From contig JBLGEO010000045.1 of the NCBI GenBank assembly GCA_047445235.1, forward strand, positions 1 to 40,275: a DNA stretch of 40,275 nt, read 5' to 3'. Position numbers and translations under genes: made by a program. Shown here piece after piece: positions 5,508 through 34,526 of the stretch. Position 1 is the first letter of the stretch, and every line of letters begins with the position of its first letter. This DNA comes from Candidatus Dojkabacteria bacterium (GTDB lineage: Bacteria; Patescibacteriota; Dojkabacteria; J137). Below the pieces are notes generated by a model. That model was given only the letters and a program-made list of their open reading frames with translations. It was not told where the DNA came from and ran no database searches.

Positions 5508-5517
5508 TAAATAATGT

Positions 5518-7932: not shown

Positions 7933-8008
7933 GCTAGGGTAGCTCAGCTGGTAGAGCACTCGCCTGAAGAGCGAGGTGTCGGCAGTTCAAGTCTGCCCCC
8001 TGGCACCA
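7933..8008 (+). tRNA. tRNA-Phe (GAA), CCA encoded
   Basis: Acceptor stem GCTAGGG/CCCTGGC, D-arm GCTC..GAGC, anticodon stem CTCGC/GCGAG with loop CTGAAGA, T-loop GTTCAAG, 3' ACCA. Confidence 0.97.
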
Positions 8009-8311: not shown

Positions 8312-11300
8312 ATGAAAAAGTTAAATTTACTTAAAAATAATTTCGTCGCTCAAATAAGAAATTTTGTCCAAAAACTTAAAAATGGTTTGAGTAACTTTAG
8401 AGGAATTCTTAACAAAGAGTTTTTATTAAGACACTATAAGGTACTTTCCTTTCTAGTTGTAGTTCTTGTAGCTAGTTTACTAGTGTTCATATTTAGACCA
8501 AAGACACCAGTTAATTTAGATTTTAACTTTACAGATAAACCAATTGCATTCAGTGATATTAAAAAGTCTGCATCAGTAGAGTTAACTGAAACTGAAAATC
8601 AATATGTAGCTCATCCAAATGGAGATTTGGTGCAGTATTCAAAATCCGGTCAATCTACAAACGGTAGTGTATCTCTTTTAAATTTAAACGCTAAAAATAA
8701 ACCATCTTTAGGAATTCACTTTACAAGCAGTGATAATTTAAATTCTACTTTAGATGGATCTAATGTAAGTTATCAAGGTATAAATTACACAATAAAATAT
8801 TCCACTTTCGATAAATTCATAAAGGAAGATATTGTTTTATTAAATCCAAACTCGGCAAAAGAATTTAAATTTGAATTAACTTCTTCAGAAGATTTAACTT
8901 TAACAAAGACGAACGATGGAGGTATCAATGTAGAACAAAATGGCAATTTGGTTTATTACATTTATCCGGCAACTGCTAAAGACTCCAACGATAAGCAAAT
9001 TGATTATACTTACGAAGTTGATGGTAAATCGATTACGTTAAAGCCATTAACATTAGCTCAATTTGAAAATGCAAAATATCCAATTACTATAGACCCTACA
9101 ATAGCTTGGTCTTTTTCAACATCAGTTGAATATACATTATCTGACGAAGCTAAAATTGAAATACAGAGTGGCTTAGTTAGATTAAAAGATAATTCTGGAT
9201 ATGCAACAGATGATCCTTATGTAATAAATAATAATGGTGTTACATACAATACTTTATCCGGCTTTAGCGAAATACTTGGGGGGAATAATCAAGGTAGTAT
9301 CCAATATCAATTAACTAATAACGGTACTGATTGGTATTGGTGGAATGGAAGCGCTTGGACGGTAACGGTTGCTGGATTTAGTGAATCTAATACAGCAGCA
9401 GTTGTTAATACAAATATTTCAACTTTTCCTACAGATATAGGAATAGGTAAACTACAATTTAAAGCATTTTTGCATGCAGCAACATCTGCAACTCAGGTTG
9501 AACTTTCAAACGTAAATATTATTTACTTTTCTAGCACAGCTCCAACAACTACTTCGCTATCACAAAATTCTGGAAGTTCCGTTGGTGGAAATGACATAAC
9601 AATTAATGGCTCTAACTTTGATGATGCATTAAAGACAAGTACATTCACATATACCGGAGCTGATCAAGCATATACAGTTCCTGCTGGTGTAACATCTATT
9701 CATGTAAAAATGTGGGGAGCTGGAGGAGGTGGTGGTACCAGAGGATCAGGTTGGGATTTCGGTTACGATGGTGGTGCAGGTGGTTATACAGAAGCAGATA
9801 TTGCAGTAACACCTGGTCAAACATTAAATGTAATGGTCGGAGGAGGTGGTTTTAGTGGTTTAACTACCGCAACAGGATATAGTTACGGAGGCGGAGGGCG
9901 AAACTGTGGAGGATCTGATTGTTCTTATGGTGGACAAGGAGGAGGAAGATCTGCTATTCAGATTTCAAGTGAAGATATTCTAACTGCAGGTGGTGGTGGT
10001 GGTGGTGGTTCTAGTGTTACTTCATATACAGAAGGTTTTGGTGGTGCTGGTGGTGGAACTACAGGGCAAGACGGAGTAGAAGTTGGGAATGCTACTACAG
10101 CTGGTACTGGTGGAACACAAAGCGCCGGTGGTACTGGTGGTGTAACTAATGTAGGCTATCCTGGAACTGCCGGTTCTAAATATTTAGGTGGTTATGCAGC
10201 TGGACAATCATATGGATCAGGTGGTGGTGGTGGATGGTATGGAGGAGGTGGTGGTGGTTACTTAAACAGTTTTATGGGTGGCGGAGGAGGTGGTTCAAGT
10301 TACATTGCAGGAGCAGGAGTAAGTAATGCAAGTACTATTGCAGGAAATTTGAACAACCAACCTAAAAGTGATGACTTTGATAACAGTGGTGCTGGAAAAG
10401 GAGGAGCAACGAGAGTAGATGGTTCTCATGGTAGAGTCATTATTAATGCGATTACTAAATCTGTAAAATTTGGGAATACAGAAGCACATAACATAAGGGT
10501 GACAGACTCAAATACTTTGATAGTAACTGTGCCTCAACATACACCTGCAACTGTGGACGTAACTGTAACAAATTCCGATGGGCAAATTGCGACCCTTAGT
10601 AATGCCTATACTTTTAATGCACCTTCTATTACTTCACTATCTAGTACTTCTGGTTCAAGTGCTGGAGGTAATGATGTAACGATAACTGGTACAGACTTTG
10701 ACTCTAAAGTAGCTAGTCAAACATTTACGTATACTGGATCAGATCAAATTTATACAGTTCCACAAGGTGTTACCTCAATTCGTGTAAAGATATGGGGAGG
10801 TGGAGGAGCTGGCGGTAATCCTGGTTCTTGGACTCAAGGATACCCAGGTGGTGGCGGTGGATATACAACAGCAGATATAGAAGTTACTCCAGGTCAGAAC
10901 TTAAACGTTATGGTGGGAGCAGGTGGTTCACATACAGCCAACAGTTTATATAATTATGGTGGTGGTGGGCCAAACTGCGGAGGTACTGATTGCCAATACG
11001 GTGGACAAGGAGGAGGAAGATCTGCTATTAAATATAATAATCAAGATCTCGTTACAGCCGGCGGTGGTGGTGGTGGTGGATCTTCTTTGCAACACAACTA
11101 TAGTGAGAATGGAGGTGCAGGAGGAGGGCCTACTGGAGATAATGGTTTAAACGGTGAAAATTCAACCTCTGGTGGTAGAGGTGGTACTCAGAGTGCAGGA
11201 GGTGCAGGAGGTGTTGCAGGTAATATAGGTGCACAACCTGGTCAAAAATATACTGGTGGAAGACCAAATTCACCTTACTCTTATGGAGGATCTGGTGGTG

Positions 11301-14300
11301 GTGGTTACTTTGGAGGTGGAGGCGGAGCATATTATAGTACAACTATGGGTGGTGGTGGTGGTGGTTCTGGTTACATTGGTGGATCTGGAGTAAGTAATGG
11401 TACTACAATTATTGGTACCTCTAAAGTGCAGGCGAATCCTGAGGATCCATTAAATAGCGGAGCCGGTGGTGGTGGAAATCAGTCTGTAGATGGCACATCA
11501 GGGAAAGTTGTAATTGACATCTTACCTAAATCAGTAACTTTTGGTGGCGTACCAGCAACAAATATTAGATATACAAATGCTACTACGATTGTTGCAACTG
11601 TACCTATTCATGCAGCGGGAACTGTAGATGTAGTTGTAACAAACCCAGACGGACAAAGTTCTACAATAACAAATTCGTATACATTTATTGGACCGATTGG
11701 AACATCAGTATCTCCTAATACAGGTTCTACTGTTGGAGGAACAGATGTAACAATAACTGGGACGAATTTTAGTAAAAGTGTTTCTACTATGACATTCTCT
11801 TTCAGTGGTGGTGATCAGACTTATACAGTTCCTGAGGGAGTAACATCGATTAAAGTAAAGGTATGGGGAGCAGGTGGAGCTGGTGGAAAAGTTGGAGGTT
11901 GGGGATATGGAGCACCTGGAGGTGGAGGTGGATATACAACAAGTGATATTACAGTAACGCCTGGTCAGACATTAACCGTAATGGTTGGAGGTGGTGGTTC
12001 TGCAGCCGGTATTGATCTTGATACTTACGGTGGTGGTGGACGTACATGTACTAGAGCAGAGTGTGTTTATGGATCTCAAGGTGGAGGTAGATCTGCAATA
12101 AGAGTAAGTGGTGAAGATATTTTAACTGCTGGAGGAGGTGGTGGTGGTGGTTCTACACGAACACCAAGTTATAGTATGGCTGGAGGAGCTGGAGGTGGAG
12201 ATGTTGCACAAACAGGTTTCTCAGATGAATATGCATCTGGCGCAGGTAAAGGGGGAACGCAAATAGCTGGTGGAGCTGGTGGTGTTACACCTTCCGCAAC
12301 AGGTGACGCTGGTTATAAATATTCTGGTGGATGGGGAGCACTTGGTTTTCCTTATGGAGGATCTGGAGGTGGTGGATGGTATGGTGGTGGAAAAGGAGAA
12401 TACTACGAGCCAAATACAATGGGTGGTGGTGGTGGTGGTTCTGGGTATATTGGTGGCGCTGGGCTTGTTAATCCCTATATGTATACTGGGGATAAAACTA
12501 CCCAAGCATTCTCAACAGATCCTGATAACGGTGGGGCTGGTGCAGGAGGTGCTGCGTCTACTGATGGACAAAATGGAAGGGTAGTTATTTATGCATTGCC
12601 TGTAAAAGTAAAAATAGGTGGTGTAGAGGCAACTAATATAAACTATGTAAACTCAACAACTATTACTGCAACTTTGCCACAGGGAACACTTGGTGCAAAG
12701 GATGTAGAAGTAATAAACCCTAATGGAGATTCTTCGACAATAACGAATGGTTTCACATATGCATCACCTAATCCAACATCTGTCACTCCATCAACGGGAT
12801 CAACTTTTGGAGGAGAAACAATTACTATTACAGGGACAAATTTTGGGAATTTAACGCCAAAAACTTATATATCAACTGGAACAGATCAATCCTATACAGT
12901 TCCTGCCGGAGTGACTTCTATCAGAGTCAAAATGTGGGGAGCAGGTGGAGGTGGAGCGGGGATTGGAAGTTGGAACTTCGGGTATTCAGGTGGAGGTGGT
13001 GGATACACTACAGCGGATGTCGCTGTTACCCCTGGAGACGTATTAACAGTTGTTGTTGGTGCAGGGGGTATTGATGGTCAATTAGGAGCTACAGGTAACA
13101 TGTATGGAGGCGGAGGAGCTGCATGTATTAGTAGCGATTGTAGATATTCTGCTGCGGGAGGTGGACGATCATCGATAAGATTTGGTGGTGAAGATATATT
13201 AACTGCAGGTGGTGGTGGTGGTGGTGGTTCTGCAAGAGCATTGGATGTTAGCCAGAGTGGTGGAGGTGGAGGTGGTACTTATGGTGAAAATGGAAAGTCA
13301 GACTATCCAACTGCCAATGGTCTTGGTGCAACTATTCTAAATGGAGGACTCGGTGGAATTGCTAATACTGCAAATGGTAACTCAGGTACTAAATATCAAG
13401 GAGGAGCAACTCAATTAAATTCATATGGAGGAGGTGGTGGTGGTGGATACTACGGTGGTGGGGCTGGAGGTTTCTTTGAAATTGCTAGTTCTAGTCGAAT
13501 GGGTGGTGGTGGCGGTGGTTCCGGATATATTGATGGGACTGGTGTATCAAAAGGTTTAATGATTGCTGCGATTGGAACTACTCAAGCAAATTCTTCAGAT
13601 GTTGACAATGGAGGTGCTGGACTGGGTGGTGCACAGTATACTGCAGGAAAACATGGAAAAGTAATCATTACACCTTTGGGTATAAATGTTTCTGTTGGTG
13701 GTGTTACAGCAAGAGATATAAGATTTGTTAGTTCTACAACCCTAACTGTAGTAACACCTACCAATTCACCTGGTGTTAAAGATGTTGTAGTTACTAGTCC
13801 TGACGGATATTCTTCAACACTTGTTGGTGGATATACATATGTGGGTTCAAGTTTAAATTCAATCACTCCTAACTTTGGTACAACTAATGGAGGAACAAAC
13901 GTAACAATTGATGGAGATAATTTAAGTGCAGGCCTCGAGACAAAAACTTATGACTTTACTGGAAGAGATCAGATCTTTATTGTTCCTGAAGGAATAACAT
14001 CGGTATTTGTAAAAGAGTGGGGAGCAGGAGGAGGTGGTGGCGATAATTTAAATTGGGGGTATGGTTATGCGGGAGGTGCAGGTGGATTTACAACGAGTGA
14101 AGTTACTGTTACACCTGGTCAACAACTTACAGTTATGGTTGGTTCTGGAGGTGTACCTGGTAGAACCTCAAATGCCTATAGTTTCTATGGAGGCGCAGGA
14201 AATAACTGTGTAGCAGACTGTAATTACGCTGGGCAAGGAGGAGGAAGATCTGCAATTAGAGTTAGTGGTGAAGATATTTTAACTGCTGGTGGAGGTGGAG

Positions 14301-17300
14301 GTGGAGGTACTAGTCGTTCTAACATACTTAGACAAATTGGAGGAGCCGGCGGTGGACTTTTAGGTCAAGATGGTATATCTGACTCAGTTTTAACTGCTGG
14401 TGGTAAAGGTGGTACTCAAAGTTCTGGTGGTTCAGCTGGAGTTGCAGGAGGTGGAAATGGTACTGCAGGTTCAAAATATACTGGAGGGAATAGTTACTCA
14501 GCTTACGGTGGATCAGGTGGAGGAGGTTGGTATGGTGGAGGAGCTGGATCTTATCAAGAACCAAATACAATGGCAGGAGGAGGAGGAGGTTCTGGATATA
14601 TTGGCGCACCCGGGTTAGTTAATCCGTTTACAATAATGGGTGATTACAATGTTCAACCATTCTCAACAGATACAGATAATTCTGGTGCAGGAGCTGGAGG
14701 AGCTGCTAATGTTGCAGGTAAACCAGGAAGGGTTGTAGTTACAACAGCACCAAGTTCTCTATATTTTGGTTCTGAAAAGGCAATAAATCTAAAATTGGTT
14801 GATGTGCATACTCTAACCGGTACTACTACACCAAATACAGCTGGTGCTAAAGATGTTTCTTTATTCTTGCCTGACGGAAACTCAGCAACTTTGAGTAATG
14901 GATTTACATTTATACCACCACCAGTTATAACTTCAATTAACCCTGCATTTGCAGCTGAAGCAGGCGGTACACAAATTGTTATTACTGGAACTGGCTTTAT
15001 AGATACACCAACAATTACATTTGGTGGCGTATCTGCAACATCAGTTACTTTTGTTAGTTCAACTACCTTAAACGTAGTTGCTCCAGCTCACGCATTAGGA
15101 AACGTAGATATTGTAATTGCCAACCCAGATGGAACTTCGAGTACATTCACAAATGGGATCCAATATATAGTAGCTCTTTCTAAAATTACATCAATTGATC
15201 CAACAGTAAGTCCTGTAGGTGGTGGCACAAATGTAACAATTACTGGTGAAAACTTTGGCCCAGCGATCAGTAGTTTAAAGTTTGGTAATACTGATGCAAT
15301 TAATCCTGTGTACGTGAATTCTACAACAATTACTGCAACAACACCTGCCCATTCACTTGGCCTTGTTGATGTGGTACTAAATCAGGAAGATGGTCAAACG
15401 TCAACACTTGCTAATAGCTTTACTTTTGCAAATCCACCAGTCATAACCAATATTAGTCCTACCAATGTAATAAAAACTGGCGGTTCAACAATAACAATCA
15501 CTGGTACAAGCTTTGAGCAAACACCGCAAGTTAAATTTGGTGGAGTGAATGCGACCTCTGTATTATATGTAAATAGTACAACTCTAACAGTTGTAGCTCC
15601 TGCACACTTTTTAGGACTAACTGATGTTCAAGTTATTAATCCAGATACTTTAGCTGTGACTTACACGAATGGAGTTAACTATGTAGAGGCACCTCCATCT
15701 ATAACGAGTGTTACGCCAAATTCAGGTCCAACTTTAGGTGGAACAGATGTAACAATTAGTGGAACAAATTTTTTAAATGGGCAAGGTACAGTTGGCAATG
15801 GTAGAGATGGTTCTGTAATAGTAGCTTCTAACAAGAATATAAATACTGATATAATCTCAGGATCAAGAACTTGTGCTGATGCAATTAACTATTCAGTAAC
15901 TGGATTAAGCTCTACACAGGCCACACTTTCAACTTCTCCTACAAATGATTGCTTAGCAGTTGACGATGAAGTGATGCTAATAAATTTACAAGGGACTAAT
16001 TCAAACAATACTAATGTAGGTAATTACGAATTCTTTTATGTATCTGCAATTACTGGGAACTCAGTAGAATTTTCAAATATAAAAACTAAATTTTACGGTG
16101 ATGGTGCAAATGATGACAATAATATAGGTACAGCTTCAACTAACCAAAAGGTAATGTTACAAAGAGTTCCTAACTACCAAAATGTTGCTGTTAATGTAGG
16201 TTCTACACTTACTTCAAGTGGTTGGGATGGCACAAAAGGTGGAGTGCTCTTTTTTAGAAATAATGGTACTCTAACAATAAATGGCTCAATTAGTGCTTCA
16301 GGAAAAGGTTATAGAGGAGGACAAGGACTAACAAATGGTTCAGATTATACTCAAGGAGAAAGTTATACCGGAGTAGGTAGTGCCGCAACTACAGCTAATG
16401 CTGGTGGGGGTGGAGTTGGTACAGGTGAAGGATCTGTTTTTAACGGAACTTCTTCTTCAGGTGGTGGAGGTGGTTCTTACGGAACTGCTGGGACAGACGG
16501 TTTTCAGGCAAGTGGAACTACTCAAGGTAGTGCTGGTAATACATATGGTACTAATACATTGGATAAATTATTCTTAGGATCAGGAGGTGGTGGAGGTGGT
16601 GCAGTAAATTTTGGTTCAGGTTCAGGAACTTTTGGTGGAAATGGTGGAAATGGAGGAGGGATAGTAATGATAAATTCTGCAAACATTGGCATAGGTGGAA
16701 CTATAGGCTCAAATGGATCAAATGGTATTAATGGTAATTCCAATGGTGGTTACGGAGGCTCTGGTGGTGGAGCTGGATCCGGAGGAAGTATCTTCATAAG
16801 TTCTTCTTCTTTAGATTTGGGTAGTTCTAACGTAATTGCAAATGGTGGTTCAAAGGGTATCGGTGGTGCTGCTGGCGAAGCAGGTACAGATGGTGGAGAT
16901 GGTGGTGCGGGTAGAGTTGCAGTATATTCAGATTCGATTACTGGTTCAACTAGTCCAAGTGCTTATCAAGGTTCGATTGGAAATAGTATTTCTAGCATAG
17001 CTGTAGATTTTGACGGAGTGTCGGCAACAAACATTACGTATGTAAATTCAACTACTTTAACTGCAACTACACCAGCAAATGCAGGTGGTCCAGCAGATGT
17101 AAAAGTTACGAATACTGATGGTCAATCGGATACTTTACACAATGGATTCTTGTACGCATCGGATAGATATTCATTTATCTCTCCAGTATTAAACATTAGG
17201 GCAACTGAACCTGGAACAATGGTAGTCCAAGCTCAAGACGTATTAGGAAACCCAATACTTGTAGACACAGATACTACTCTAAGTTTATCTTCAACTAGTA

Positions 17301-20300
17301 CCTCTGGCTTTTTTGCAATTGACTTAAACGAAAATGAATCAACAAGATGGGATTACAATTCAGTTGTAATACTTGCTGGAACATCTACATCAACGTTCTA
17401 TTACAAAGATAATCAAAAAGGAACCCCAACAATTACTGCGGAGCCTACTGAAGGAGCTATTAGTATCCCAGCAACACAAAATGCCGCGATCAAAAGTAAA
17501 TTTCAACTTTTACTTACAGGAATCAGTGATCCAATAAAAGTTGGAGTACCTAGTTCTGTAACTGTAATCAGCGTTGACTACTTAGGTAATCCACAACATG
17601 ATTATCAAGGAACTGTTCAGTTCAGTTCTACAGATCCAGCTACGTTGTTTCCAGCAAACTTTACATACCAGTTGTCAATGCTTGGTGAACATACTTTCGT
17701 TAATGGAGTCACACTAGTAACTCAAGGAGACTTCTGTGTATCTGTAACAGACGTTGATGATGCTGATATTACGGGTAGTCAATGTAATATTACAGTTGAT
17801 CCACCGGACGTTGGTACAATTGCTAAACTAAAAATACTAAACGGAACTCAAACAATTCCTCTAGATGGAATTACAACAGAAATTACAGTTCAAACTCAAG
17901 ATACAAATGGAACTGCAATTCCTGTTGGTGTTATAACACCTATTTACTTTTACACAAATTCGAGCACAGGTGAATTCTCAACAGATGGAGTGACTTGGTC
18001 CAATGGTCCATTTACATCACAAATATCGGCTTATGCAACATCAAAGAATTTCTTTTACAGAGATCCAACACTTGGTGCACACATAATAGTTGTTAGAGAC
18101 GATTCAGTTGGAAACAGTAATGGTACAGGTACAAATGTTGGCTGGGAAAACGATACCGCAACAATAACAACTGCAGTTGGATCTGCAAATAAATTAGCAC
18201 TATATGGTGTTCCAACATCGTTAACAGCTGGAGATGTAAGCAGTGCAATTAGTATTTCAATGCAAGATGTAGATGGAAATAACCTAACAGCAACTCAAGA
18301 TAAAACAGTTTATTTGACTGCAAATCCAAATACAATACTATTTTCTGTAGATGGAGTGAGTAGTTTTACCAATAGTCTTTCTACAAAGATCAAAACAGGA
18401 GACTTGCTAACACAAGTTTATATTAAAAGTTTAGTAAAGGGATCAACAGATATTACTTTATCAGATGCTAATCCAGCAGACGGAGATACTGGCTTAGTGG
18501 ATAGTGTTAAAAATATAACAATAAATGCTGCTGCTGCAAATAAACTTATTCTAATAGATGGACCTTCACAAGTTATTGCTGGTGATGTTTCAAATGTATT
18601 TACAGTACAATTACAGGACATTTATAACAACCCTGTTAGTCCAATAAGTAACTTTCCAATTTACCTATCAACAAACAATTCAGATGGAGTATTCTCTGCA
18701 ACATCATTTGGAACAACAATTACAACATTAAATATTCCAGCAGCAAGTGACAGTGTTAACTTCTACTTTAAGCAAAATAAATACTTTACTACTCAAACAA
18801 TTAATATTGCTGACACGATAGGTGGATTCGGTGCAGGAGGATTAACAGATGCACAAACAACAATAGATATATTGCCAGGAACAATTTCTCAATTAGGAAT
18901 TCTTGAGAGTTCACCATATTCCGCAGTAGCAGGAGTTGAAGCTGGGCCATTCACAGCAGTTATAAAAAATACGTTTAATGTAGAAGTGCCAACTAGCCAA
19001 GATATTCAACTTTACTTATATACAAATTCAGTAGCAGGAACAAAAGAATTCTCTATATTGAGTAGTCCTTGGACTCCTATTACAAGTTATTTATTACCAA
19101 CTTCACAAAGTAGATTTACTTTCTTCTATAAAGATACAAAGGCTGCAACTACAACAATAAAAGTATCCGATGATAATAACCCTTCATTTGAATTCGGGTT
19201 AACCAATGCTTCAATAGATTTAGCGATTGCAGCAGCTACACCAAGTGCAGTTAAGTTTACATCTAGTCCACAAACAGCTGACGCTGGAGTAGCTACAGGA
19301 GCAATCACAGTAAGCCTTTATGATCAATATAATAACGTAGCAAAATCAGCAGCAGGAACAACAGTTAATTTGGCAAGTACCTCTGGAACAGGAAGATTTG
19401 ATACTGCAAGCAATGGTGCATTTGATGGTAGTATTACAAGCGTAAATGTAAATACAGATCAAAGTGTTGCAACTTTCTACTATAAAGATACAACTGCAGG
19501 AACGCCAACAATCACATTAACTTCAAGTGGTTTAAGTGGCGACACTCAAGATCAAACTATTGTTTATGGTAATGTAACTAGCTTTAACTTATCGAGTGTA
19601 AGTTCTACCGTAACTGCTGGTGTAAGTTCAAGTGCAATAACTCTAAAGACTTTCAACGCTGGTAATGTTAATGTTCCTGTGCCTTCAGACTTTACAGTTA
19701 ACATAGCAAGTAATAACATAACTGGCAAATTTGATACAGCATCGAACGGCGGCTTCTTAGGAGTAGTTACAAGCGTAACTGTGTTGGCAAATCAAAGTTC
19801 AGTAGATTTCTATTATAAAGATTCATTAGCTAGTAATGTAACTATTACTGCTAGCAAAAATACTTTCACGAATGCAACATTTAACTTAGCAGTGACAGCA
19901 GCAGCAGCAAGCAAGTTAGCATTTAAAGACTCAAGTCTAGCTGCATTAAATCTTGGACAACAGAGTGCTGCAATATTTATTCAAAGTCAGGATTCTTTTG
20001 GAAATCAGTCAGTAGTTACAACAGATACAAATGTATATTTACATTCTAATTCTGCTAATCACCAATTTTTTAACCAATCTAATTCTGTAGTAACAAATGT
20101 TGTCTTAACAAATGGAAGTTCAGAAACTCAATTTAGTTACAAAGATTTTGTAATAGGGACATATACAATTACATTGAGTGATTTTACTTATCCAGACTCA
20201 CCTGATGTAGGTTTAACTAACGCTTCAAAGGATATAACTATTACAAATGGAGCACCTGCTAAATTTCAACTAACAAAACTTTCTCAAGACTTACTAGTTG

Positions 20301-23300: not shown

Positions 23301-26300
23301 GATTTGTTAACTCAAATTCATCCGTTCAGTCTGGAGATGTAAAACAATTACAACTAAGACTTCTAAACGCATATGATGGACTAACTCAGACTCCTGGTCA
23401 GTTAACAGTTTATTTCTCTACCACATCAAGTGGATTATTCTCATTAGGTCAGACCTTTGGAGTGGGGGAGTCAATTGATGCATATTCAATTCCTGAAAAT
23501 CAGAGTGGAGTAGACTTATACTATAAAGATATCCAAGCAGGTAGTGTAACAGTTACTGCTTCAGATTTTTCAACTCCTGCAGAGATTCCAGACACAGGAA
23601 TTACAAATGCTACTCAAACATTCACAGTACAATCGGCTAATTTACAAAATTTGGTATTTATAACTACAGCACAAAGTTTAGTTGTAGGACAAACATCAAA
23701 TGTTATGACTGTTCAAGCTAGAGATGTATTTGGTAATATTGCAACTGTTACAAATATAACACCATTTTACTTGTATACTAATTCTGTAACAGGTCAATTC
23801 TCATTAAGCACAGACTTTAGTGCAGGTCATTTGGTTACTCAATCATCTATGTCTGCAGGAACTTCATCGGTTTCGTTCTACTATAAAGATTTAACTTATG
23901 TTGCACCAAGTTCTAATCCAACTATTACAGTAAGTAATCAATTTCCTAAACCAGTAAGTGATGATTCTATTATCGATGCAGTTCAAATCGAAACAATTAA
24001 TGCAGGTAACATATCTCAAATTACTTATACATCTTCCGATTTAGGTACAACAATTGCAGGTACACCAGCTGCACCAATTACTGCAATATTTAAAAATCAA
24101 TATAATGTAGAAATTCCATTAACATCTACTAAAACTCTTTACTTCTTTAGTTCGTTAGGAGGAGGGCAGTTTGCAAGTTGGAACGGAAGTTCTTGTGGTA
24201 GTTTTGGAATTAGTTCAATAGACATTACAGCACCAAACTCAAGATTTATATTCTGTTATAAATCTTCACAAAGTGGAAGTTCAACAGTTACTGTTTCAGA
24301 TACTAATGTTGTAACACCAGATACCGCTTGGACAAATGCAACTGGAGTGATTGTTGTTGACCCTGGAATAATTACTCAAATAGTATTTAATAATACAAAC
24401 CCACAAGAGATTGTAGCAAGACATACTTCTGCAGAATTAAAGATAGAAACTAGAAATCAATATGGTAATGCTACAGCAGTTACATCTAACAAAACTATTT
24501 TCTTGAGGTCTTCATCTTCAACTGGAGAGTTTGCATTATCGCCTGGTGGTTCTTGGGGAATTAATTTTGCAACAATTCCAAACGGACAGAGTGGAGTTTC
24601 TACTTACTATAGGGACTCAACAGCTACAACTGGAACTCCACTAACAATTACTGCAGCAGATTCTCTTCCATTAATTCCAGACACTGCTTGGACAAATGGA
24701 ACTCTAAATATAAATATTTCTCAACAAGTAGTTCAAAACTTTTTGGTAACAAACATTTCAGATCCACAAGTACAAGGTAATTCTAGTTCCGTAATTGTAG
24801 TTGCAAGAGATTCGGAAAACTTTACAGTAGATTGGTATACAGGTACTATTCACTTTACATCTTCAGATTCAAACGCAATTTTACCTGCTGACTATACATT
24901 CACAGCTGCAGATAAAGGCTTAAAGACTTTTGTTAATGGAGTTGCATTCGCAACAATTGGTGAGCAATACGTAAGGGTTACTGATGGCAATGGCGTAACT
25001 GGTGAACAAATAAACATAACTGTGAATACAAACCCAGCTGGACCAATAACTCAAGTTAGATTTAAAGATGCTACATCACCAACAATAGTACAAACTAATG
25101 TTGCCTCTACACCATTTACTGTTCAATTAAGAGACTCTAATGGGCAGGGTGCTAATGCTGGAGTTGGAGGATTCCAAATACGAGTAAGTTCAACATCTGG
25201 TACAGGACAGTTCTCATCTAGTGCAAGTGGGCCATGGAGTAGCTCTGGAGTGTTTACAATTCCTCAAAACTTTAGTGTAGTAAATGTTTATTATAAAGAT
25301 TCAGCATCAGGTAACTTTACATTAACTGCAAGTGATTGGATTTCAAATACAGATGATATTGGAATATCTAATGACACGTTATCTATAATATCAAATACAG
25401 TTCTAGTTATAGTAAATACACAATTGCAAGTTAACAATAACTCACACCAATATGTAAACTCACCAGTAATATTTGCAAAAGATGATAGCGGAAGTTTTAC
25501 TGCAAAGTCTGATTTTCAAATTTCAACTACAGATGCACTTGCTGGTACTCCTAAAGCATCTAATCTAACAATCAATTGGAAAAACCCAGCAGGCGTAACT
25601 GTTCAAACAGGTACTGTTACAAATACAAGCTCTACAGTATTTACAGTTCCTGAATTTACAGGAACAGTTGCTACTGGAAACTATACTTTAGAAATTGTTG
25701 CTGCAACAGTAGATACAAGCTTCAATGTAACAAGTAGTACAAATGTACCAGTGTCTGGTTGGACTGCAAGTGTTAATTATAATCCAAACAATATAAACCT
25801 AGGACAACCAGTGGCTTTTACTATTCAAACAAAATTAGATGGAGTATTTACAGATCCTACAAACTTAACTGTAAATGTAAAAGATAATAACGGAACAGAT
25901 GTTGTTGGCGCAGCGTATTCAAAAAATCTTTCAGAATTAACCAAAGATTCGACAGGCAATTACTCTGGAACATTAACTTCAGTTAATTTATTAGCTGGAC
26001 AAGCATACTACTTATATACAAGAATATTTGATTCAAATACATTAGCTGAAGATAATAATAACGATATATTCTTCCAGAATAATCCAACAATAGCACCAAA
26101 GAACTTTAGAATCGCAAAGACTTTAACTTCAACAGCTCCTGATGCAGAAACTTATAACTTAAACTTTAACTGGGATCTATCTGATTTCGCAATAACTTAT
26201 AACTTATACAGAAGCACTAATAAATTTAATGTACTATTTTCAGATACTTGTTCATTAGACGATATTAAATTTGGCCATAGGTTCGGCGAAGTTGGTGCAA

Positions 26301-27157
26301 TAACACCATTCTGCGAAACAACTATTAGTCAAAATGTAAATGTAGACGATGCGACATCATGGGTAGAAATGGCTACAATAAATAATCCAACTAATAGCTA
26401 CGCTATTGATTGGTCAACAGTTCAATCAACTCTAAGTTCTGGAACTTATTACTATGTACTAAGAGCTAATAATGCAGCTGGCGAGAGTGCTTACTCAACA
26501 ATGGTATTTTCATCAAGAAGGAATTACAACTTTAATGCTACTCTTGCAAATACTAACTGGATTTCAATTCCATACGAATCTGTTTATTCGAAAGCATCTG
26601 ATATTGTTAACGAAATTGAAGGTGGTACTGGTTCAGGTACAAATAAAAAAATAAATACTGTTACATTATGGAGACCTACTCCTCAAGATGTTGAATCTTA
26701 TAAGTACAATCCATTACTAGCAAAGTGGGTGGGAACAGACTTTAATATTAGTCCTGGAGATGGAATTTCATTAATACTTTCTGGTACTACTCAAAATTTT
26801 GATTGGACAGTTGCAGGAAACGATGTTGTTCAGCAAAAAACATTTACATTCAATGCTGACAACACAAATAGAAATTGGTTATCTATTCCATATTCAACAA
26901 AATTTGCAACAGCTTCAGATATTGTAAAAGACTTAGAAGGTAGTTTAGGATCAAGTACTAATCAAAAGATTACTTCGATTAACGTATGGGATTCATCAAC
27001 ACAAACCTTAAATACATATTCATACAGTAGTGGTTTAGGTTCTTGGACAGGTTCAAACTTTACGATAAACCCTGGCGATGGAATTTCAATAAATTTATCT
27101 GGGAATTCGTCAGGTGTTAACTGGACACCTTACTTAATAATTAATCCAAATAAGTAG
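8312..27157 (+). CDS. Giant (6281 aa) putative surface/adhesin protein with IPT/TIG, ALK/LTK-like glycine-rich and Ig-like repeats
   Basis: Uninterrupted 18.8 kb ORF. Basic N-terminus followed by one hydrophobic segment (VLSFLVVVLVASLLVFIF). T/S/G/N/V-rich. IPT signatures GG..VTITG.NF and VDV.V.NPDG, Gly-rich units, FYYKD repeats. Confidence 0.93.
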   Translation: MKKLNLLKNNFVAQIRNFVQKLKNGLSNFRGILNKEFLLRHYKVLSFLVVVLVASLLVFIFRPKTPVNLDFNFTDKPIAFSDIKKSASVELTETENQYVAHPNGDLVQYSKSGQSTNGSVSLLNLNAKNKPSLGIHFTSSDNLNSTLDGSNVSYQGINYTIKYSTFDKFIKEDIVLLNPNSAKEFKFELTSSEDLTLTKTNDGGINVEQNGNLVYYIYPATAKDSNDKQIDYTYEVDGKSITLKPLTLAQFENAKYPITIDPTIAWSFSTSVEYTLSDEAKIEIQSGLVRLKDNSGYATDDPYVINNNGVTYNTLSGFSEILGGNNQGSIQYQLTNNGTDWYWWNGSAWTVTVAGFSESNTAAVVNTNISTFPTDIGIGKLQFKAFLHAATSATQVELSNVNIIYFSSTAPTTTSLSQNSGSSVGGNDITINGSNFDDALKTSTFTYTGADQAYTVPAGVTSIHVKMWGAGGGGGTRGSGWDFGYDGGAGGYTEADIAVTPGQTLNVMVGGGGFSGLTTATGYSYGGGGRNCGGSDCSYGGQGGGRSAIQISSEDILTAGGGGGGGSSVTSYTEGFGGAGGGTTGQDGVEVGNATTAGTGGTQSAGGTGGVTNVGYPGTAGSKYLGGYAAGQSYGSGGGGGWYGGGGGGYLNSFMGGGGGGSSYIAGAGVSNASTIAGNLNNQPKSDDFDNSGAGKGGATRVDGSHGRVIINAITKSVKFGNTEAHNIRVTDSNTLIVTVPQHTPATVDVTVTNSDGQIATLSNAYTFNAPSITSLSSTSGSSAGGNDVTITGTDFDSKVASQTFTYTGSDQIYTVPQGVTSIRVKIWGGGGAGGNPGSWTQGYPGGGGGYTTADIEVTPGQNLNVMVGAGGSHTANSLYNYGGGGPNCGGTDCQYGGQGGGRSAIKYNNQDLVTAGGGGGGGSSLQHNYSENGGAGGGPTGDNGLNGENSTSGGRGGTQSAGGAGGVAGNIGAQPGQKYTGGRPNSPYSYGGSGGGGYFGGGGGAYYSTTMGGGGGGSGYIGGSGVSNGTTIIGTSKVQANPEDPLNSGAGGGGNQSVDGTSGKVVIDILPKSVTFGGVPATNIRYTNATTIVATVPIHAAGTVDVVVTNPDGQSSTITNSYTFIGPIGTSVSPNTGSTVGGTDVTITGTNFSKSVSTMTFSFSGGDQTYTVPEGVTSIKVKVWGAGGAGGKVGGWGYGAPGGGGGYTTSDITVTPGQTLTVMVGGGGSAAGIDLDTYGGGGRTCTRAECVYGSQGGGRSAIRVSGEDILTAGGGGGGGSTRTPSYSMAGGAGGGDVAQTGFSDEYASGAGKGGTQIAGGAGGVTPSATGDAGYKYSGGWGALGFPYGGSGGGGWYGGGKGEYYEPNTMGGGGGGSGYIGGAGLVNPYMYTGDKTTQAFSTDPDNGGAGAGGAASTDGQNGRVVIYALPVKVKIGGVEATNINYVNSTTITATLPQGTLGAKDVEVINPNGDSSTITNGFTYASPNPTSVTPSTGSTFGGETITITGTNFGNLTPKTYISTGTDQSYTVPAGVTSIRVKMWGAGGGGAGIGSWNFGYSGGGGGYTTADVAVTPGDVLTVVVGAGGIDGQLGATGNMYGGGGAACISSDCRYSAAGGGRSSIRFGGEDILTAGGGGGGGSARALDVSQSGGGGGGTYGENGKSDYPTANGLGATILNGGLGGIANTANGNSGTKYQGGATQLNSYGGGGGGGYYGGGAGGFFEIASSSRMGGGGGGSGYIDGTGVSKGLMIAAIGTTQANSSDVDNGGAGLGGAQYTAGKHGKVIITPLGINVSVGGVTARDIRFVSSTTLTVVTPTNSPGVKDVVVTSPDGYSSTLVGGYTYVGSSLNSITPNFGTTNGGTNVTIDGDNLSAGLETKTYDFTGRDQIFIVPEGITSVFVKEWGAGGGGGDNLNWGYGYAGGAGGFTTSEVTVTPGQQLTVMVGSGGVPGRTSNAYSFYGGAGNNCVADCNYAGQGGGRSAIRVSGEDILTAGGGGGGGTSRSNILRQIGGAGGGLLGQDGISDSVLTAGGKGGTQSSGGSAGVAGGGNGTAGSKYTGGNSYSAYGGSGGGGWYGGGAGSYQEPNTMAGGGGGSGYIGAPGLVNPFTIMGDYNVQPFSTDTDNSGAGAGGAANVAGKPGRVVVTTAPSSLYFGSEKAINLKLVDVHTLTGTTTPNTAGAKDVSLFLPDGNSATLSNGFTFIPPPVITSINPAFAAEAGGTQIVITGTGFIDTPTITFGGVSATSVTFVSSTTLNVVAPAHALGNVDIVIANPDGTSSTFTNGIQYIVALSKITSIDPTVSPVGGGTNVTITGENFGPAISSLKFGNTDAINPVYVNSTTITATTPAHSLGLVDVVLNQEDGQTSTLANSFTFANPPVITNISPTNVIKTGGSTITITGTSFEQTPQVKFGGVNATSVLYVNSTTLTVVAPAHFLGLTDVQVINPDTLAVTYTNGVNYVEAPPSITSVTPNSGPTLGGTDVTISGTNFLNGQGTVGNGRDGSVIVASNKNINTDIISGSRTCADAINYSVTGLSSTQATLSTSPTNDCLAVDDEVMLINLQGTNSNNTNVGNYEFFYVSAITGNSVEFSNIKTKFYGDGANDDNNIGTASTNQKVMLQRVPNYQNVAVNVGSTLTSSGWDGTKGGVLFFRNNGTLTINGSISASGKGYRGGQGLTNGSDYTQGESYTGVGSAATTANAGGGGVGTGEGSVFNGTSSSGGGGGSYGTAGTDGFQASGTTQGSAGNTYGTNTLDKLFLGSGGGGGGAVNFGSGSGTFGGNGGNGGGIVMINSANIGIGGTIGSNGSNGINGNSNGGYGGSGGGAGSGGSIFISSSSLDLGSSNVIANGGSKGIGGAAGEAGTDGGDGGAGRVAVYSDSITGSTSPSAYQGSIGNSISSIAVDFDGVSATNITYVNSTTLTATTPANAGGPADVKVTNTDGQSDTLHNGFLYASDRYSFISPVLNIRATEPGTMVVQAQDVLGNPILVDTDTTLSLSSTSTSGFFAIDLNENESTRWDYNSVVILAGTSTSTFYYKDNQKGTPTITAEPTEGAISIPATQNAAIKSKFQLLLTGISDPIKVGVPSSVTVISVDYLGNPQHDYQGTVQFSSTDPATLFPANFTYQLSMLGEHTFVNGVTLVTQGDFCVSVTDVDDADITGSQCNITVDPPDVGTIAKLKILNGTQTIPLDGITTEITVQTQDTNGTAIPVGVITPIYFYTNSSTGEFSTDGVTWSNGPFTSQISAYATSKNFFYRDPTLGAHIIVVRDDSVGNSNGTGTNVGWENDTATITTAVGSANKLALYGVPTSLTAGDVSSAISISMQDVDGNNLTATQDKTVYLTANPNTILFSVDGVSSFTNSLSTKIKTGDLLTQVYIKSLVKGSTDITLSDANPADGDTGLVDSVKNITINAAAANKLILIDGPSQVIAGDVSNVFTVQLQDIYNNPVSPISNFPIYLSTNNSDGVFSATSFGTTITTLNIPAASDSVNFYFKQNKYFTTQTINIADTIGGFGAGGLTDAQTTIDILPGTISQLGILESSPYSAVAGVEAGPFTAVIKNTFNVEVPTSQDIQLYLYTNSVAGTKEFSILSSPWTPITSYLLPTSQSRFTFFYKDTKAATTTIKVSDDNNPSFEFGLTNASIDLAIAAATPSAVKFTSSPQTADAGVATGAITVSLYDQYNNVAKSAAGTTVNLASTSGTGRFDTASNGAFDGSITSVNVNTDQSVATFYYKDTTAGTPTITLTSSGLSGDTQDQTIVYGNVTSFNLSSVSSTVTAGVSSSAITLKTFNAGNVNVPVPSDFTVNIASNNITGKFDTASNGGFLGVVTSVTVLANQSSVDFYYKDSLASNVTITASKNTFTNATFNLAVTAAAASKLAFKDSSLAALNLGQQSAAIFIQSQDSFGNQSVVTTDTNVYLHSNSANHQFFNQSNSVVTNVVLTNGSSETQFSYKDFVIGTYTITLSDFTYPDSPDVGLTNASKDITITNGAPAKFQLTKLSQDLLVGTPELVTLKLLNAYDQEVPATSDTQVNLSSTSGTGSFDTVSNGSFNLNSVTVLNGDSTATFYYKDTTVGTPTVSAARNGFTTGTTTFNLQPSTVFRLVFDSVQQSVVAGVSSNVYIIKFRDQYGNYTVPQSPFTINLASQEATAQFATSNVGPWNVTSIDVNINDLDARFFYKDTVAGIKTLTASSNLLQSGTQNVTITANTPTTMKFVPNVGQTVAGQIASGAITVVLYDQYNNIAKPSSSVTLNLTSDSSHYEFSKTVVPWTPVTSVDITSSESQSVFYYKDWIVGTPTITVTDNANVIDPINLQFTIIASDASKLVISTAPQTTIINTPTNNITFFVADINNYKTAFNSDSQVFVSSDSVGGQFSKDNGETWTTTLTFDIQASTDTERSFIYVDSVEGNPQITISSSGLTSATQIETMITGTINKVVIGGDGNVAAGTPLALNIQTLNNADLAVSVNEDTILTLLSTSTTGEFSLSNSVWTPITEFTLVKWQNQKVIYYKDTISGTATITVNAKISQGWTDGTKLIDVTSAAYSRIIFLQHPASVVADTLSTQFTVQTVDQFGNLVGTSDRTVYIYVPASGNISLNGTTFVGTTTALTLLDGDFSGSFYYKDVLPGNKVITASDQTPLDAPDTGVINATANINVLGQTVAGIRVTTTAQTGSLKLTAGQISSVITIEAYKANNSAAIVGTPLQIDLSAIPSSVGKFTATSDVSANAITSVTISTGSTTANVYFTTNVANTYTLNFDSTAITGDTQQIEFQAATASKLVFRTSVQSKGAGVESDQFRVSLQDQFDNLATEATDTTLILSSTSSTGLFSVLNGLAWVDTNQITLSASTSDIYFYYKDTVAGTSVLTVDETPSLGITAATQNFTVTSGSVASIRFLTTTNTLQVNQPSNAMTVSVYDVFGNQTTTQSDLNIYYYSTSGTGSFASSNLFSSTITSAIITAATSSSTFYYKDTTSNNPVITVSDQPSLDSPDIGITNATQTQTIILGAVAKLRFVNSNSSVQSGDVKQLQLRLLNAYDGLTQTPGQLTVYFSTTSSGLFSLGQTFGVGESIDAYSIPENQSGVDLYYKDIQAGSVTVTASDFSTPAEIPDTGITNATQTFTVQSANLQNLVFITTAQSLVVGQTSNVMTVQARDVFGNIATVTNITPFYLYTNSVTGQFSLSTDFSAGHLVTQSSMSAGTSSVSFYYKDLTYVAPSSNPTITVSNQFPKPVSDDSIIDAVQIETINAGNISQITYTSSDLGTTIAGTPAAPITAIFKNQYNVEIPLTSTKTLYFFSSLGGGQFASWNGSSCGSFGISSIDITAPNSRFIFCYKSSQSGSSTVTVSDTNVVTPDTAWTNATGVIVVDPGIITQIVFNNTNPQEIVARHTSAELKIETRNQYGNATAVTSNKTIFLRSSSSTGEFALSPGGSWGINFATIPNGQSGVSTYYRDSTATTGTPLTITAADSLPLIPDTAWTNGTLNINISQQVVQNFLVTNISDPQVQGNSSSVIVVARDSENFTVDWYTGTIHFTSSDSNAILPADYTFTAADKGLKTFVNGVAFATIGEQYVRVTDGNGVTGEQINITVNTNPAGPITQVRFKDATSPTIVQTNVASTPFTVQLRDSNGQGANAGVGGFQIRVSSTSGTGQFSSSASGPWSSSGVFTIPQNFSVVNVYYKDSASGNFTLTASDWISNTDDIGISNDTLSIISNTVLVIVNTQLQVNNNSHQYVNSPVIFAKDDSGSFTAKSDFQISTTDALAGTPKASNLTINWKNPAGVTVQTGTVTNTSSTVFTVPEFTGTVATGNYTLEIVAATVDTSFNVTSSTNVPVSGWTASVNYNPNNINLGQPVAFTIQTKLDGVFTDPTNLTVNVKDNNGTDVVGAAYSKNLSELTKDSTGNYSGTLTSVNLLAGQAYYLYTRIFDSNTLAEDNNNDIFFQNNPTIAPKNFRIAKTLTSTAPDAETYNLNFNWDLSDFAITYNLYRSTNKFNVLFSDTCSLDDIKFGHRFGEVGAITPFCETTISQNVNVDDATSWVEMATINNPTNSYAIDWSTVQSTLSSGTYYYVLRANNAAGESAYSTMVFSSRRNYNFNATLANTNWISIPYESVYSKASDIVNEIEGGTGSGTNKKINTVTLWRPTPQDVESYKYNPLLAKWVGTDFNISPGDGISLILSGTTQNFDWTVAGNDVVQQKTFTFNADNTNRNWLSIPYSTKFATASDIVKDLEGSLGSSTNQKITSINVWDSSTQTLNTYSYSSGLGSWTGSNFTINPGDGISINLSGNSSGVNWTPYLIINPNK
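9539..14910 (+). repeat. Five tandem ~1.07 kb units, each an IPT/TIG domain with an inserted ALK/LTK-like glycine-rich domain
   Basis: Each unit reads ITG.NF, then (S/T)G.DQ.(Y/F).VP.G(V/I)TS..VK.WG.GG, C-x3/4-C, GGGRS.I, TAGGGGGGG, GGGG.S.YI, G(R/K)V, then V.FG...DV.V..PDG. Approximate starts 9539, 10619, 11690, 12765, 13845. Confidence 0.9.
17160..25390 (+). repeat. About 22 degenerate ~115-130-aa Ig-like repeats ('FYYKD' modules)
   Basis: Recurring order: L.F....Q....G..S, then (Q/Y)D.(F/Y).N, L.S.S.TG.F, FYYKD...G, T(N/D)A.Q. About 22 copies counted by eye. Confidence 0.85.
26522..27130 (+). repeat. Tandem duplicated ~100-aa C-terminal domain
   Basis: Two copies of FNA....NW(I/L)SIPY......ASDIV...EG..GS.TN.KI.....W...Y.Y......W.G..F.I.PGDGIS..LSG......WT. 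Confidence 0.9.
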
Positions 27158-27253
27158 AAAATTTATGAGCAAAAAAACCGTAAACAGTCATCCAAATTGT
27201 AATCCGAACTTAATTCTGATATATTATTTTGATAAGGCTAAAACTGCATTAGT

Positions 27254-32727: not shown

Positions 32728-32752
32728 CAAATAAACTAAATAAGAATACTCT
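32724..32752 (+). promoter_or_regulatory. Sigma70 promoter candidate for the TPR gene
   Basis: TTGACA (32724-32729, overlapping the upstream TGA stop), 17-nt spacer, TACTCT (32747-32752). Confidence 0.55.
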
Positions 32753-32778
32753 TTATTTAAATACTTAATTAAAATCAA

Positions 32779-33417
32779 ATGGAAAAGAAAACAAAAATAA
32801 TTATTGCCGTTGTTTCTTTAGTAGGATTTGTTGTAATAGTATTGGTAGCATTATTTATTCGAAATTCGACCCAGAATTCTCAAAAACCAGCGGTGGGTAA
32901 TCCCATCATTGAATCTTACAAAAATAATCTTCCCGATTTAGCAGCCAAAGCTACAAATTCTACAGATCCTAAAGCAATAAGAAATTATGCAGTTGCACTT
33001 TATGCTACTGGGGATTTGGAAAGTGCTAAGACGCAGTATCTAAGAGAAAAAGAGCTTAATCCTAATGATGCCATTCTTTATAATAATTTAGGAAATATTT
33101 ACCGAGATAGTGGTGAGTATCAAAATGCTGTGGATGCTTATCAGAAATCAATTGATTTAGATAAATCTCAACTAAATGTTTATATAAATCTAGCAAACCT
33201 ATATATTTATGTCTTACAAAAACCAGATTTGGGTTATGGTGTTTATCTAAAAGGAATTGAAAACAGCCCAAATAATAAAGAAGCATTATTACTACCTTTA
33301 GCTAATGCATATAAAGATGCAGGCCTAAAACAAAAAGCAATAGATACATATAATCAAATTCTTGCAATCGACCCTAGCAATGCTGCTGTAAAAGCTATTC
33401 TTGAAGGTCTAAAATAA
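32779..33417 (+). CDS. Membrane-anchored tetratricopeptide repeat protein
   Basis: N-terminal TM helix. TPR signatures LYNNLGNIY..SGEYQNAVDAYQKSI and LANAY...G....AIDTYNQILAIDP. Confidence 0.9.
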   Translation: MEKKTKIIIAVVSLVGFVVIVLVALFIRNSTQNSQKPAVGNPIIESYKNNLPDLAAKATNSTDPKAIRNYAVALYATGDLESAKTQYLREKELNPNDAILYNNLGNIYRDSGEYQNAVDAYQKSIDLDKSQLNVYINLANLYIYVLQKPDLGYGVYLKGIENSPNNKEALLLPLANAYKDAGLKQKAIDTYNQILAIDPSNAAVKAILEGLK

Positions 33418-33460
33418 GATAAGAAGTTAGGGCAGTTTATAACATTACTTGTTCCTGATT

Positions 33461-34450: not shown

Positions 34451-34526
34451 AAATTTAAGTATATCGATATATTTGCAAAAAGAATATCGAATTAATTAAG
34501 TTAAGAGTTGTGTCTGACTTGCTCAT

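Follow-up and report, generated by a model that had tools for sequence, protein, structure and literature searches.

A conserved four-gene cassette encoding a giant modular protein, a candidate surface adhesin, in a Dojkabacteria genome

The contig JBLGEO010000045.1 of a Candidatus Dojkabacteria bacterium (assembly GCA_047445235.1) was analysed over its whole length of 40,275 bp, termed here the window. It belongs to a genome of 1.14 Mb in 95 contigs, with a GC content of 33.6% and an estimated completeness of 91.5%. Four genes on the forward strand of the window form a cassette that makes up 2.2% of this genome. They encode a giant protein (P1), a small membrane protein with an immunoglobulin (Ig)-like domain (P2), an Ig-repeat protein of 1497 aa (P3) and a tetratricopeptide repeat (TPR) protein (P4). 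Comparison of the sequences suggests, with moderate confidence, that the cassette is laterally moving and acts as a unit, building a giant modular adhesin or fibre at the cell surface. A specific role in attachment to host cells is put forward much more tentatively. An initial annotation of the DNA had described four co-oriented genes, and the listing of open reading frames (ORFs) places ORFs of 6281, 326, 1497 and 212 aa at exactly the same coordinates, all on the forward strand. The features are collected in Table 1.

Table 1. Features of the cassette and of the island that contains it (window coordinates)
Feature	Position	Strand	Basis or properties
P1, giant gene	8312..27157	+	ORF, 6281 aa, 643 kDa, pI 4.5
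P1 aa 1-61, basic 42-aa N-tail and one transmembrane segment (aa 43-61)	8312..8494	+	hydropathy
P1 aa 62-411, N-terminal domain(s), no family	8495..9544	+	no Pfam or NCBIfam match
P1 aa 412-2201, five ~357-aa TIG units, each with a nested glycine-rich domain	9545..14914	+	PF12810, PF21722, TIG halves
P1 aa 2203-2460, three intact TIGs	14918..15691	+	own hidden Markov model, E 4e-41 to 2e-45; PF01833
P1 aa 2461-2949, ninth TIG, split	15692..17158	+	TIG halves aa 2461-2490 and 2897-2949
P1 aa 2954-5674, FYYKD array	17171..25333	+	iterated hidden Markov model, 24-copy alignment, AlphaFold2
P1 aa 5675-5933, two more Ig-like modules (probable)	25334..26110	+	sequence pattern; MG2 E 0.013, sub-threshold
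P1 aa 5934-6281, Fn3 and tandem pair of ~105-aa domains	26111..27154	+	HMMER, AlphaFold2
P2 gene	27254..28234	+	ORF, 326 aa
P3 gene	28234..32727	+	ORF, 1497 aa
P4 gene	32779..33417	+	ORF, 212 aa
tRNA-Phe, left edge of island	7933..8008	+	ARAGORN
Rest of island: 329-aa ORF (no family) and 430-aa ferric-reductase-like membrane flavoprotein	33461..35819	-	ORFs

The linkage of the four genes is conserved. The genomes compared are designated G000 (that of the window), G001 and G002 (same genus), G021 and G024 (genus g15 of the same family) and G061 (another genome, GC 56%, identified when species-representative genomes were scanned with a sequence pattern); L034 is a metagenome contig (GC 49%). The genes for the giant, the ~1500-aa protein and the TPR protein lie side by side in six of six loci (G000, G001, G021, G024, G061 and L034), as expected if the linkage proposed in the initial annotation is conserved, and P2 is present in all five loci where the relevant DNA is visible. 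In G021 and G024 the giant is followed by proteins of ~344, ~1502 and ~214 aa, and the identities for P1 to P4 are 63, 54-58, 64 and 69%. The one-base overlap of the P2 stop and P3 start codons (TAATG), from which translational coupling had been proposed, is present in the sequence and is kept in both of these genomes. In G001 a P2-like gene is located directly upstream of the giant, followed by P3-like and P4-like genes (36-52% identity). G061 encodes proteins of 282, ~6928, 1513 and 236 aa in that order (~40-48% identity for the C-terminal half of P1, the N-terminal part of P3 and P4), and L034 a 5′-truncated giant followed by proteins of 1500 and 228 aa (~41-46% identity). There are two gene orders: P2 lies between the giant and P3 in three loci, and in two it immediately precedes the giant. 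Collinear orthologues of P1 with lengths of 4375-6928 aa occur in four other genomes, and the cassette is maintained across GC contents of 34, 49 and 56%. The other ORFs of the window have no match in any of the other cassette loci, which have no flanking gene in common. These comparisons support the four genes as one conserved unit.

The topology of all four proteins was predicted by a Kyte-Doolittle hydropathy scan. Starting at the N-terminus, P1 has a basic tail and a single transmembrane (TM) segment that are kept in frame in G021 and G024. Judged by hydropathy and the conservation of the tail, the N-terminus is likely to be an uncleaved signal anchor. In the giants of G024 and G021 the tail and TM segment run in frame upstream of the first ATG, GTG or TTG, with CTG at the position of the ATG used in the window; these orthologues may start at CTG. 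The proposal that all four proteins are exported or membrane anchored agrees with the scan: TM or signal-like segments are found in P1, P2 and P4, and P3 has a weaker hydrophobic N-terminus, below the hydropathy threshold, that is shared by its orthologues.

Beyond the anchor, the region comprising aa 62-411 is 48-49% identical to that of G024 and G021, and orthologues bear DUF2341 or DUF7948 there. Pfam gives no family at E ≤ 10 for this domain, for the two odd Ig modules or for the N-terminal domain of P3. It covers the N-terminal half of P1 alone, with TIG, PF12810 and Gly_rich_2. TIG (PF01833) is matched in 12 stretches (E 4.8e-94, 308.9 bits against a cut-off of 20.9), and a hidden Markov model (HMM) constructed from the three intact copies resolves nine TIG domains, of which six are split. 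Five of the split domains lie in tandem, the units being 53-59% identical to the first. Each of these TIGs is interrupted after its first ~30-40 residues by a glycine-rich domain of ~260 aa of the ALK/LTK type. Membership of the ALK/LTK glycine-rich family PF12810 is clear, with five stretches matched at 140.2 bits (cut-off 24.5, E 1.5e-40), the best of which spans model positions 12-226 of 243; the giant orthologue of G024 scores 194.6 bits. No ALK/LTK chain in the PDB was found by phmmer or by a profile of the five units, which may be explained by low-complexity filtering. After the three intact TIGs the chain continues into the ninth, which is again split. Its insert (aa 2491-2896, ~406 aa) is glycine rich, differs from the other five and is retained in G001 and G061. 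The N-terminal domain of Myxococcus AgmC (NF047640) was considered for this insert and rejected: its score of 62.8 bits falls short of the cut-off (275), and the match probably reflects the glycine-rich composition.

The stalk of P1 is formed by 22 tandem Ig-like modules of ~104 aa that we term FYYKD modules, detected with an HMM iterated on the four proteins of the cassette (domain E 1e-20 to 1e-33). The array is broken by two other modules of ~110 aa (aa 3045-3155 and 5450-5564), and is probably followed by two further Ig-like modules, to judge from the sequence pattern. The initial annotation had the FYYKD module common to both large proteins. This is the case, as P3 contains two full copies and eight weaker Ig-like matches, and all 24 of the strong matches in the whole genome fall within P1 and P3. 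The module corresponds to no Pfam family. AlphaFold2 applied to the 24-copy alignment gives a seven-strand β-sandwich with a mean confidence (pLDDT) of 93.1. The best Foldseek matches of this model are weak and generically Ig-like: Ig-like domains of GH2 β-galactosidases (E 0.012), intimin D00-D0 (E 0.035) and SbsC (E 0.036-0.14). In the PDB the FYYKD profile has a single match below E 0.01, the S-layer protein SbsC (4uid_A, E 0.0081). Membership of Big_1 (intimin/invasin type) is not supported: P3 reaches 27.7 bits where the family requires 34.9, and the FYYKD model shares with it the Ig-like fold class; a match of P3 to Big_6 is likewise under the Pfam cut-off.

The last 348 residues of P1 are modelled by AlphaFold2 (pLDDT 89.7) as an Fn3 domain followed by two mutually similar domains. 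The Fn3 part is recognised by VIA (Z 8.8) and by a profile match in the PDB (3mpc, E 1.8e-8), the profile matching no other part of the module there. Searches with the whole C-terminal model by Foldseek (PDB and BFVD) and VIA are dominated by the Fn3 domain, with TM ≤ 0.22 and the VIA rows covering model residues 1-135 only. An Atlas search with the module returned unnamed clusters only, and it matches no Pfam or NCBIfam family. HMMER finds the C-terminal module in 303 representative proteins at E ≤ 1e-3. Among the matches listed, it ends ≤20 aa from the C-terminus in 137 of 149, in proteins of 113-7116 aa, and roughly 13 are giants of ≥3000 aa. When 40 carriers of intermediate length were scanned with Pfam, 23 had some family at E ≤ 1e-5 and 17 had none; the passengers were Big_5 (15), Kelch (8), Subtilase (2), Beta-helix/NosD (2), Clostripain (1) and PEGA (1). 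Ten carriers were looked up. Four had a source name, and the three that named an organism come from Ca. Moraniibacteriota (4204 aa, annotated as 'glycine-rich domain-containing protein'), Ca. Thermoplasmatota and Euryarchaeota. This is a previously undescribed terminal module that is reused on many passengers across bacteria and archaea. It could dock to a component of the envelope or bind a common ligand. The double module is present in one of 400 other genomes sampled across the phylum. The idea that the C-terminal module serves this genome as a sorting signal for proteins in general was discarded, since P1 is its sole carrier here.

The initial annotation saw no LPxTG, autotransporter, RTX or type IX secretion system (T9SS) signal, and the searches agree. 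A regular expression finds no LPxTG in P1-P4, and neither P1 nor P3 ends in a hydrophobic segment. The RTX nonapeptide pattern, also sought by regular expression, matches once within glycine-rich unit 5, as a chance match. No gene for an ATP-binding cassette transporter, membrane fusion protein or TolC-type protein of a type I secretion system (T1SS) was matched in the window. No autotransporter or T9SS family of Pfam is found at E ≤ 0.01, CHU_C giving E 0.17 (12.4 bits, cut-off 27).

P2 conforms to its earlier description as a type I membrane Ig protein with a P/Q-rich tail. A signal-like N-terminus precedes a single Ig-like ectodomain and a TM segment at aa 153-171, followed on the cytoplasmic side by a conserved juxtamembrane motif before the tail. 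Its family consists of 14 unnamed protein clusters without a Pfam or NCBIfam match. P3 has a conserved N-terminal domain and an Fn3-like part (aa ~40-290); an Atlas search with the N-terminus gave β-sandwich leads, all below 0.9. It further contains two FYYKD modules and ~8 Ig modules related to these, and ends in an Ig-like domain whose tail is conserved. The P3 family comprises 10 unnamed clusters (1452-1589 aa), among them the window's own protein with another start. This public product of 1452 aa begins 45 codons downstream (28369 rather than 28234), and the hydrophobic N-terminus seen throughout the orthologues is retained by the longer form of 1497 aa. An Ig-like domain shared by P2 and P3 had also been proposed. 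The similarity between them (BLASTP E 0.10; hhalign E 0.0086, probability 4.7%, over 83 columns) makes this plausible without establishing it.

P4 is a TPR protein as annotated, scoring 60.6 bits with TPR_2 (cut-off 27) and matching 19 TPR-type families with E down to 7e-17. The hydropathy scan places a TM segment at aa 7-25, and the orthologues of G021 and G024 are 69% identical to the window's protein. From the basic N-terminal flanks, which are clearest in G061, the TPR part probably faces the outside of the cell. Further P4-like genes were observed. G024 has a second one (G024:C1:1008693-1009322; L042 12627-13325) that is 44% identical and has neither a giant nor a P3-like gene in its vicinity. 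The second copy of G021 is located on a different contig (G021:C30:3212-3844), and next to a weaker match in G590 (G590:C153:523-1164, 39% identity) is a gene unlike P3.

The giants fall into two types that go with the two gene orders and differ in their TIG-nested modules. Type A (G000, G021 and G024) has 22 FYYKD modules in each case. The glycine-rich units number five in G000 and G024, and one of the five of G021 is partly deleted. In type B there are 15 FYYKD modules (G001) or 23 (G061), and Kelch repeats replace the glycine-rich domains, with at least one Kelch block per giant located between TIG halves. The stalk and C-terminus are retained across both types. Relative to G024 and G021 the stalk is 64% identical, the second glycine-rich insert is 32-34% identical and aligns only in part, and the C-terminal double module is the most conserved region of the giant at 69-73%. 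The layout of binding heads, stalk and anchor suggested in the initial annotation is consequently uncertain, as the variable modules are proximal to the anchor and the C-terminus is the most conserved part.

The cassette lies within an island of ~28 kb (window ~8009-35918) next to tRNA-Phe, together with the 329-aa ORF and the ferric-reductase-like gene. The flanks of the island are conserved, comprising an HhH-GPD glycosylase, tRNA-Phe, a PsbP-like gene with tRNA-Val, and MurA. In the congeners G002 and G001 only a short distance separates these flanks and the cassette is missing from between them (~0.7 kb from tRNA-Phe to the PsbP-like gene in G002), so that the intervening DNA of the window constitutes an island. 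The 329-aa ORF and ferric-reductase-like gene are outside the conserved cassette and are not found beside other cassettes, and the DNA containing them has no match in G001 or G002. A search of the window for an att-like repeat of the 3′ end of tRNA-Phe gave none, and a family scan of its proteins matched no integrase. Of 60 related genomes the FYYKD profile matches three. Within the family these are one of the two congeners and two of the four members of a second genus, and the 34 genomes from outside the family have no match.

The tree of a cassette protein disagrees with the similarity of a housekeeping protein. MurA is 90 and 84% identical to the proteins of the congeners (84% for G001) and 73-74% identical to those of genus g15. 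The cassette proteins have the reverse pattern, being nearer to g15 than to the congener G001, and in a tree of P3 G000 groups with G021 and G024 while G001 lies outside the 10-row clade (support 100/100). This fits either lateral transfer, or old cassette types that have sorted differently among lineages. The nearest named relatives of MurA are labelled Ca. Dojkabacteria, as is the contig of G001. The records of the other genomes are labelled Ca. Saccharibacteria (G021), Patescibacteria group (G024) and Ca. Saccharimonadales (G061). Such labels of metagenome-assembled genomes are loose, yet all point to the candidate phyla radiation (CPR).

A possible mechanism can be drawn from these data. 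P1 would be exported and remain attached, through its N-terminal signal anchor, to the membrane of the cell that makes it, as hydropathy and the conserved N-tail suggest. According to the HMMs and AlphaFold2 models it contains ~38 β-sandwich domains (9 TIG, 22 FYYKD, ~4 other Ig-like, 1 Fn3 and 2 C-terminal). If extended, these might form a filament of ~100-150 nm, estimated at ~4 nm per Ig-type domain. Recognition of a ligand would most likely occur via the modules nested in the TIGs, five glycine-rich domains of the ALK/LTK type here and Kelch propellers in the variant with the other gene order, and perhaps also via the C-terminal Fn3 and double module. P3 would be a second secreted Ig chain made partly of FYYKD modules. 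P2 and P4 might tether, space or help to assemble P1 and P3, a role suggested by the strict linkage of the genes. Candidate targets are the envelope of a host cell, another microbe, and a plant or soil surface. The initial annotation envisaged one extracellular structure for host contact; the single conserved unit and a surface-exposed, adhesin-like architecture agree with this, and contact among the four proteins, their co-expression and a host cell as the target are its tentative elements.

The architecture can be compared with known adhesins. Giant Ig-repeat surface adhesins of monoderm bacteria include the 7651-residue adhesin of Mobiluncus mulieris (PMC10619420) and staphylococcal Embp (PMC9302970). 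P1 resembles these in being by far the largest protein of its proteome, in having tens of tandem Ig-like domains in a stalk and terminal non-repeat modules, and in its acidic pI. It differs from them in the absence of LPxTG, in the N-terminal TM anchor, in a repeat that is not in Pfam and in three strictly linked partner genes. Fibrillar adhesins of the RTX/T1SS class (LapA, SiiE and the ice-binding adhesin type) are addressed in 10.1101/2025.09.30.679566. As in this class, P1 appears to be anchored N-terminally with a long Ig-like extender and C-terminal non-repeat modules that possibly bind ligand. Unlike them it has no RTX array, no T1SS genes were matched in the window, and its variable modules are proximal to the N-terminus. 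The organism is also not known to have an outer membrane.

Glycine-rich bundles of polyproline-II helices are found in the receptor-binding tip of phage S16 gp38 and in the ligand-binding region of ALK/LTK, according to a passage of PMC13243192 (citing PDB 7N00, 7NX1 and 6F45). The five strong PF12810 matches of P1 recall these at the level of the sequence family, and the bundles described in that passage belong to ligand- or receptor-binding regions. In P1 the domain is nested in TIG, present five times and lacks a kinase or phage context. Cultivated Saccharibacteria have host-attachment factors of two kinds, namely type IV pili on the one hand and, on the other, essential proteins of the envelope in which VCBS, dockerin and FnIII domains occur (PMC10633639). 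In common with what that source describes, there is investment by candidate phyla in extracellular adhesive proteins and Fn3-type domains. The present cassette differs in being missing from most of the relatives searched. None of the passages of PMC10633639 retrieved by a term search describes this cassette, and a search of the literature on the cassette, giant proteins and the envelope or S-layer of these bacteria, supplements aside, found no description of it.

Several observations weigh against a giant adhesin that acts with its partners as a unit in attachment. The variable modules adjoin the membrane anchor, whereas the tip of an adhesin would be expected far from it. The conserved C-terminal module, which also ends proteases, beta-helix, Kelch and Big_5 proteins, fits anchoring or docking equally with a binding head. 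The similarity of the P2 ectodomain to the C-terminus of P3 is marginal. P4-like genes also occur unlinked (the second copy of G024, and G590), so that linkage of the TPR gene is not exclusive. Most relatives are without the cassette, which is therefore not a core requirement of the lineage. Finally, the housekeeping relatives are labelled Dojkabacteria, a group for which, to our knowledge, no host has been identified and the lifestyle is not known.

The four genes might travel together and yet make separate surface proteins that form no complex, for example two adhesins and two unrelated membrane proteins that are co-transferred or co-regulated. The differing position of P2 in the two gene orders, the P4 paralogues outside the cassette and the marginal similarity of the P2 and P3 domains would all be accommodated in this way. 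We consider it rather improbable given that all four genes are kept in five of five visible loci, at ~40-70% protein identity and over a 22-point range of GC content, that the one-base overlap of stop and start codons is conserved in three loci, and that P1 and P3 share a module absent elsewhere in the genome.

A giant adhesin could also be directed to something other than a host. It might fix the bacterium to the matrix of a biofilm or to a surface that is abiotic or of plant origin, with polysaccharide of roots or soil as an example. The sequencing runs that contain this DNA are all rhizosphere metagenomes, a weak indication as they belong to one study and are perhaps the source sample. Fn3, Kelch and β-sandwich domains are common in carbohydrate-binding proteins, the fold matches include Fn3 and Ig domains associated with glycosidases, and the C-terminal module also ends archaeal proteases and beta-helix proteins. 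Set against this, Pfam and NCBIfam recognise no carbohydrate-binding or enzyme family in the four proteins. A CPR genome of 1.1 Mb would moreover be expected to depend on other cells, from general knowledge and, for Saccharibacteria only, passages of PMC10633639. A target of this kind is accordingly given a low probability.

A further possibility is a structure directed to the cell's own envelope, with P1 and P3 forming a protective or spacing layer like an S-layer coat or sheath, and P2 and P4 anchoring or assembling it. Here the similarity to SbsC-type S-layer proteins (PDB 4uid, 4uj7 and 5ftx) is relevant, SbsC being both the sole sequence match of the FYYKD profile in the PDB below E 0.01 and a weak fold match. 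The constant 22 modules in all three type A genomes, and a C-terminal module that behaves as a generic end to many passengers, would also suit such a coat. The SbsC matches are weak, at the level of a generic Ig-like fold, and Pfam reveals no SLH or other known S-layer anchor family in the four proteins. A basic layer would be expected in most relatives, whereas the cassette is found in three of 60 and within an island, and a chain of 6281 aa with nested binding-type modules is unlike the known lattice-forming S-layer proteins. A coat seems improbable.

That the giant ORF is a repeat assembly artefact or a decaying gene is very improbable: the gene is highly repetitive, and the independent contigs, short as they are and thinly covered, have two weak joints (side 21) in repeat regions, but it runs for 18.8 kb without a stop, the collinear orthologues of 4375-6928 aa include two with an identical count of 22 modules, and the independent contigs are free of mismatches.

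Returning to the modular surface adhesin, a more specific, speculative and rather unlikely version is that the cassette is a dedicated organelle of candidate-phyla bacteria for cell-to-cell attachment. Its specificity would be provided by the swappable modules nested in the TIGs, of polyglycine type in one version and Kelch propellers in the other, it would pass laterally between lineages labelled Dojkabacteria and Saccharimonadales, and its docking C-terminus would be shared with archaea of the Thermoplasmatota type. If true, the cassette would be a portable determinant of host range for episymbionts. According to passages of PMC10633639, experimental work on attachment is confined to Saccharibacteria, and recognition of partners by ultrasmall candidate-phyla bacteria is largely obscure beyond type IV pili in a few cultivated Saccharibacteria. 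The locus provides a concrete, conserved and testable candidate for partner attachment, with co-travelling genes and swapped nested modules, and the presence or absence of the island in sister genomes could be correlated with the range of partners. It also exposes modules outside Pfam and NCBIfam, namely the FYYKD Ig-like repeat, the C-terminal Fn3 and double module and the unnamed P2 and P3 families, and shows ALK-type glycine-rich domains nested within another domain of a bacterial protein, an arrangement that is new for them.

The short contigs used as an independent check on the assembly come from four DNA runs of one study, which may be the source sample of the genome. In the best run 29 of 30 bins are covered with zero mismatches. 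As these contigs are too short to inform on long-range structure, the gene order rests instead upon the collinear orthologues. Weak joints and loose ends of the short contigs occur at ~10240-14575 and 19829-21472, inside repeats of the glycine-rich and FYYKD kinds (side 21, depth 2.6-4.6). They are probably due to collapse of repeats in short-read unitigs, with variation of copy number in the population as an alternative. No RNA run was among the run matches to window 25500-33500, these being solely the four DNA runs from the one rhizosphere study. Scans for promoters and terminators gave results at or under the expectation from shuffled sequence.

Three ORFs outside the island are unusual. 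A UvrB-like ORF (3068-4300, reverse strand) encodes only 410 aa, with ResIII and UvrB interaction domains and no match to the helicase C-terminal domain. Four bases beyond it is a 293-aa ORF (2183-3064, reverse strand) with a weak PP2C lead (E 0.0029). The two could be a split, fused-away or truncated uvrB. A 110-aa ORF (1761-2093, forward strand) corresponds to the N-terminal domain of prepilin peptidase A24 alone (E 1.4e-31), without the peptidase domain, and overlaps the end of the preceding 175-aa ORF.

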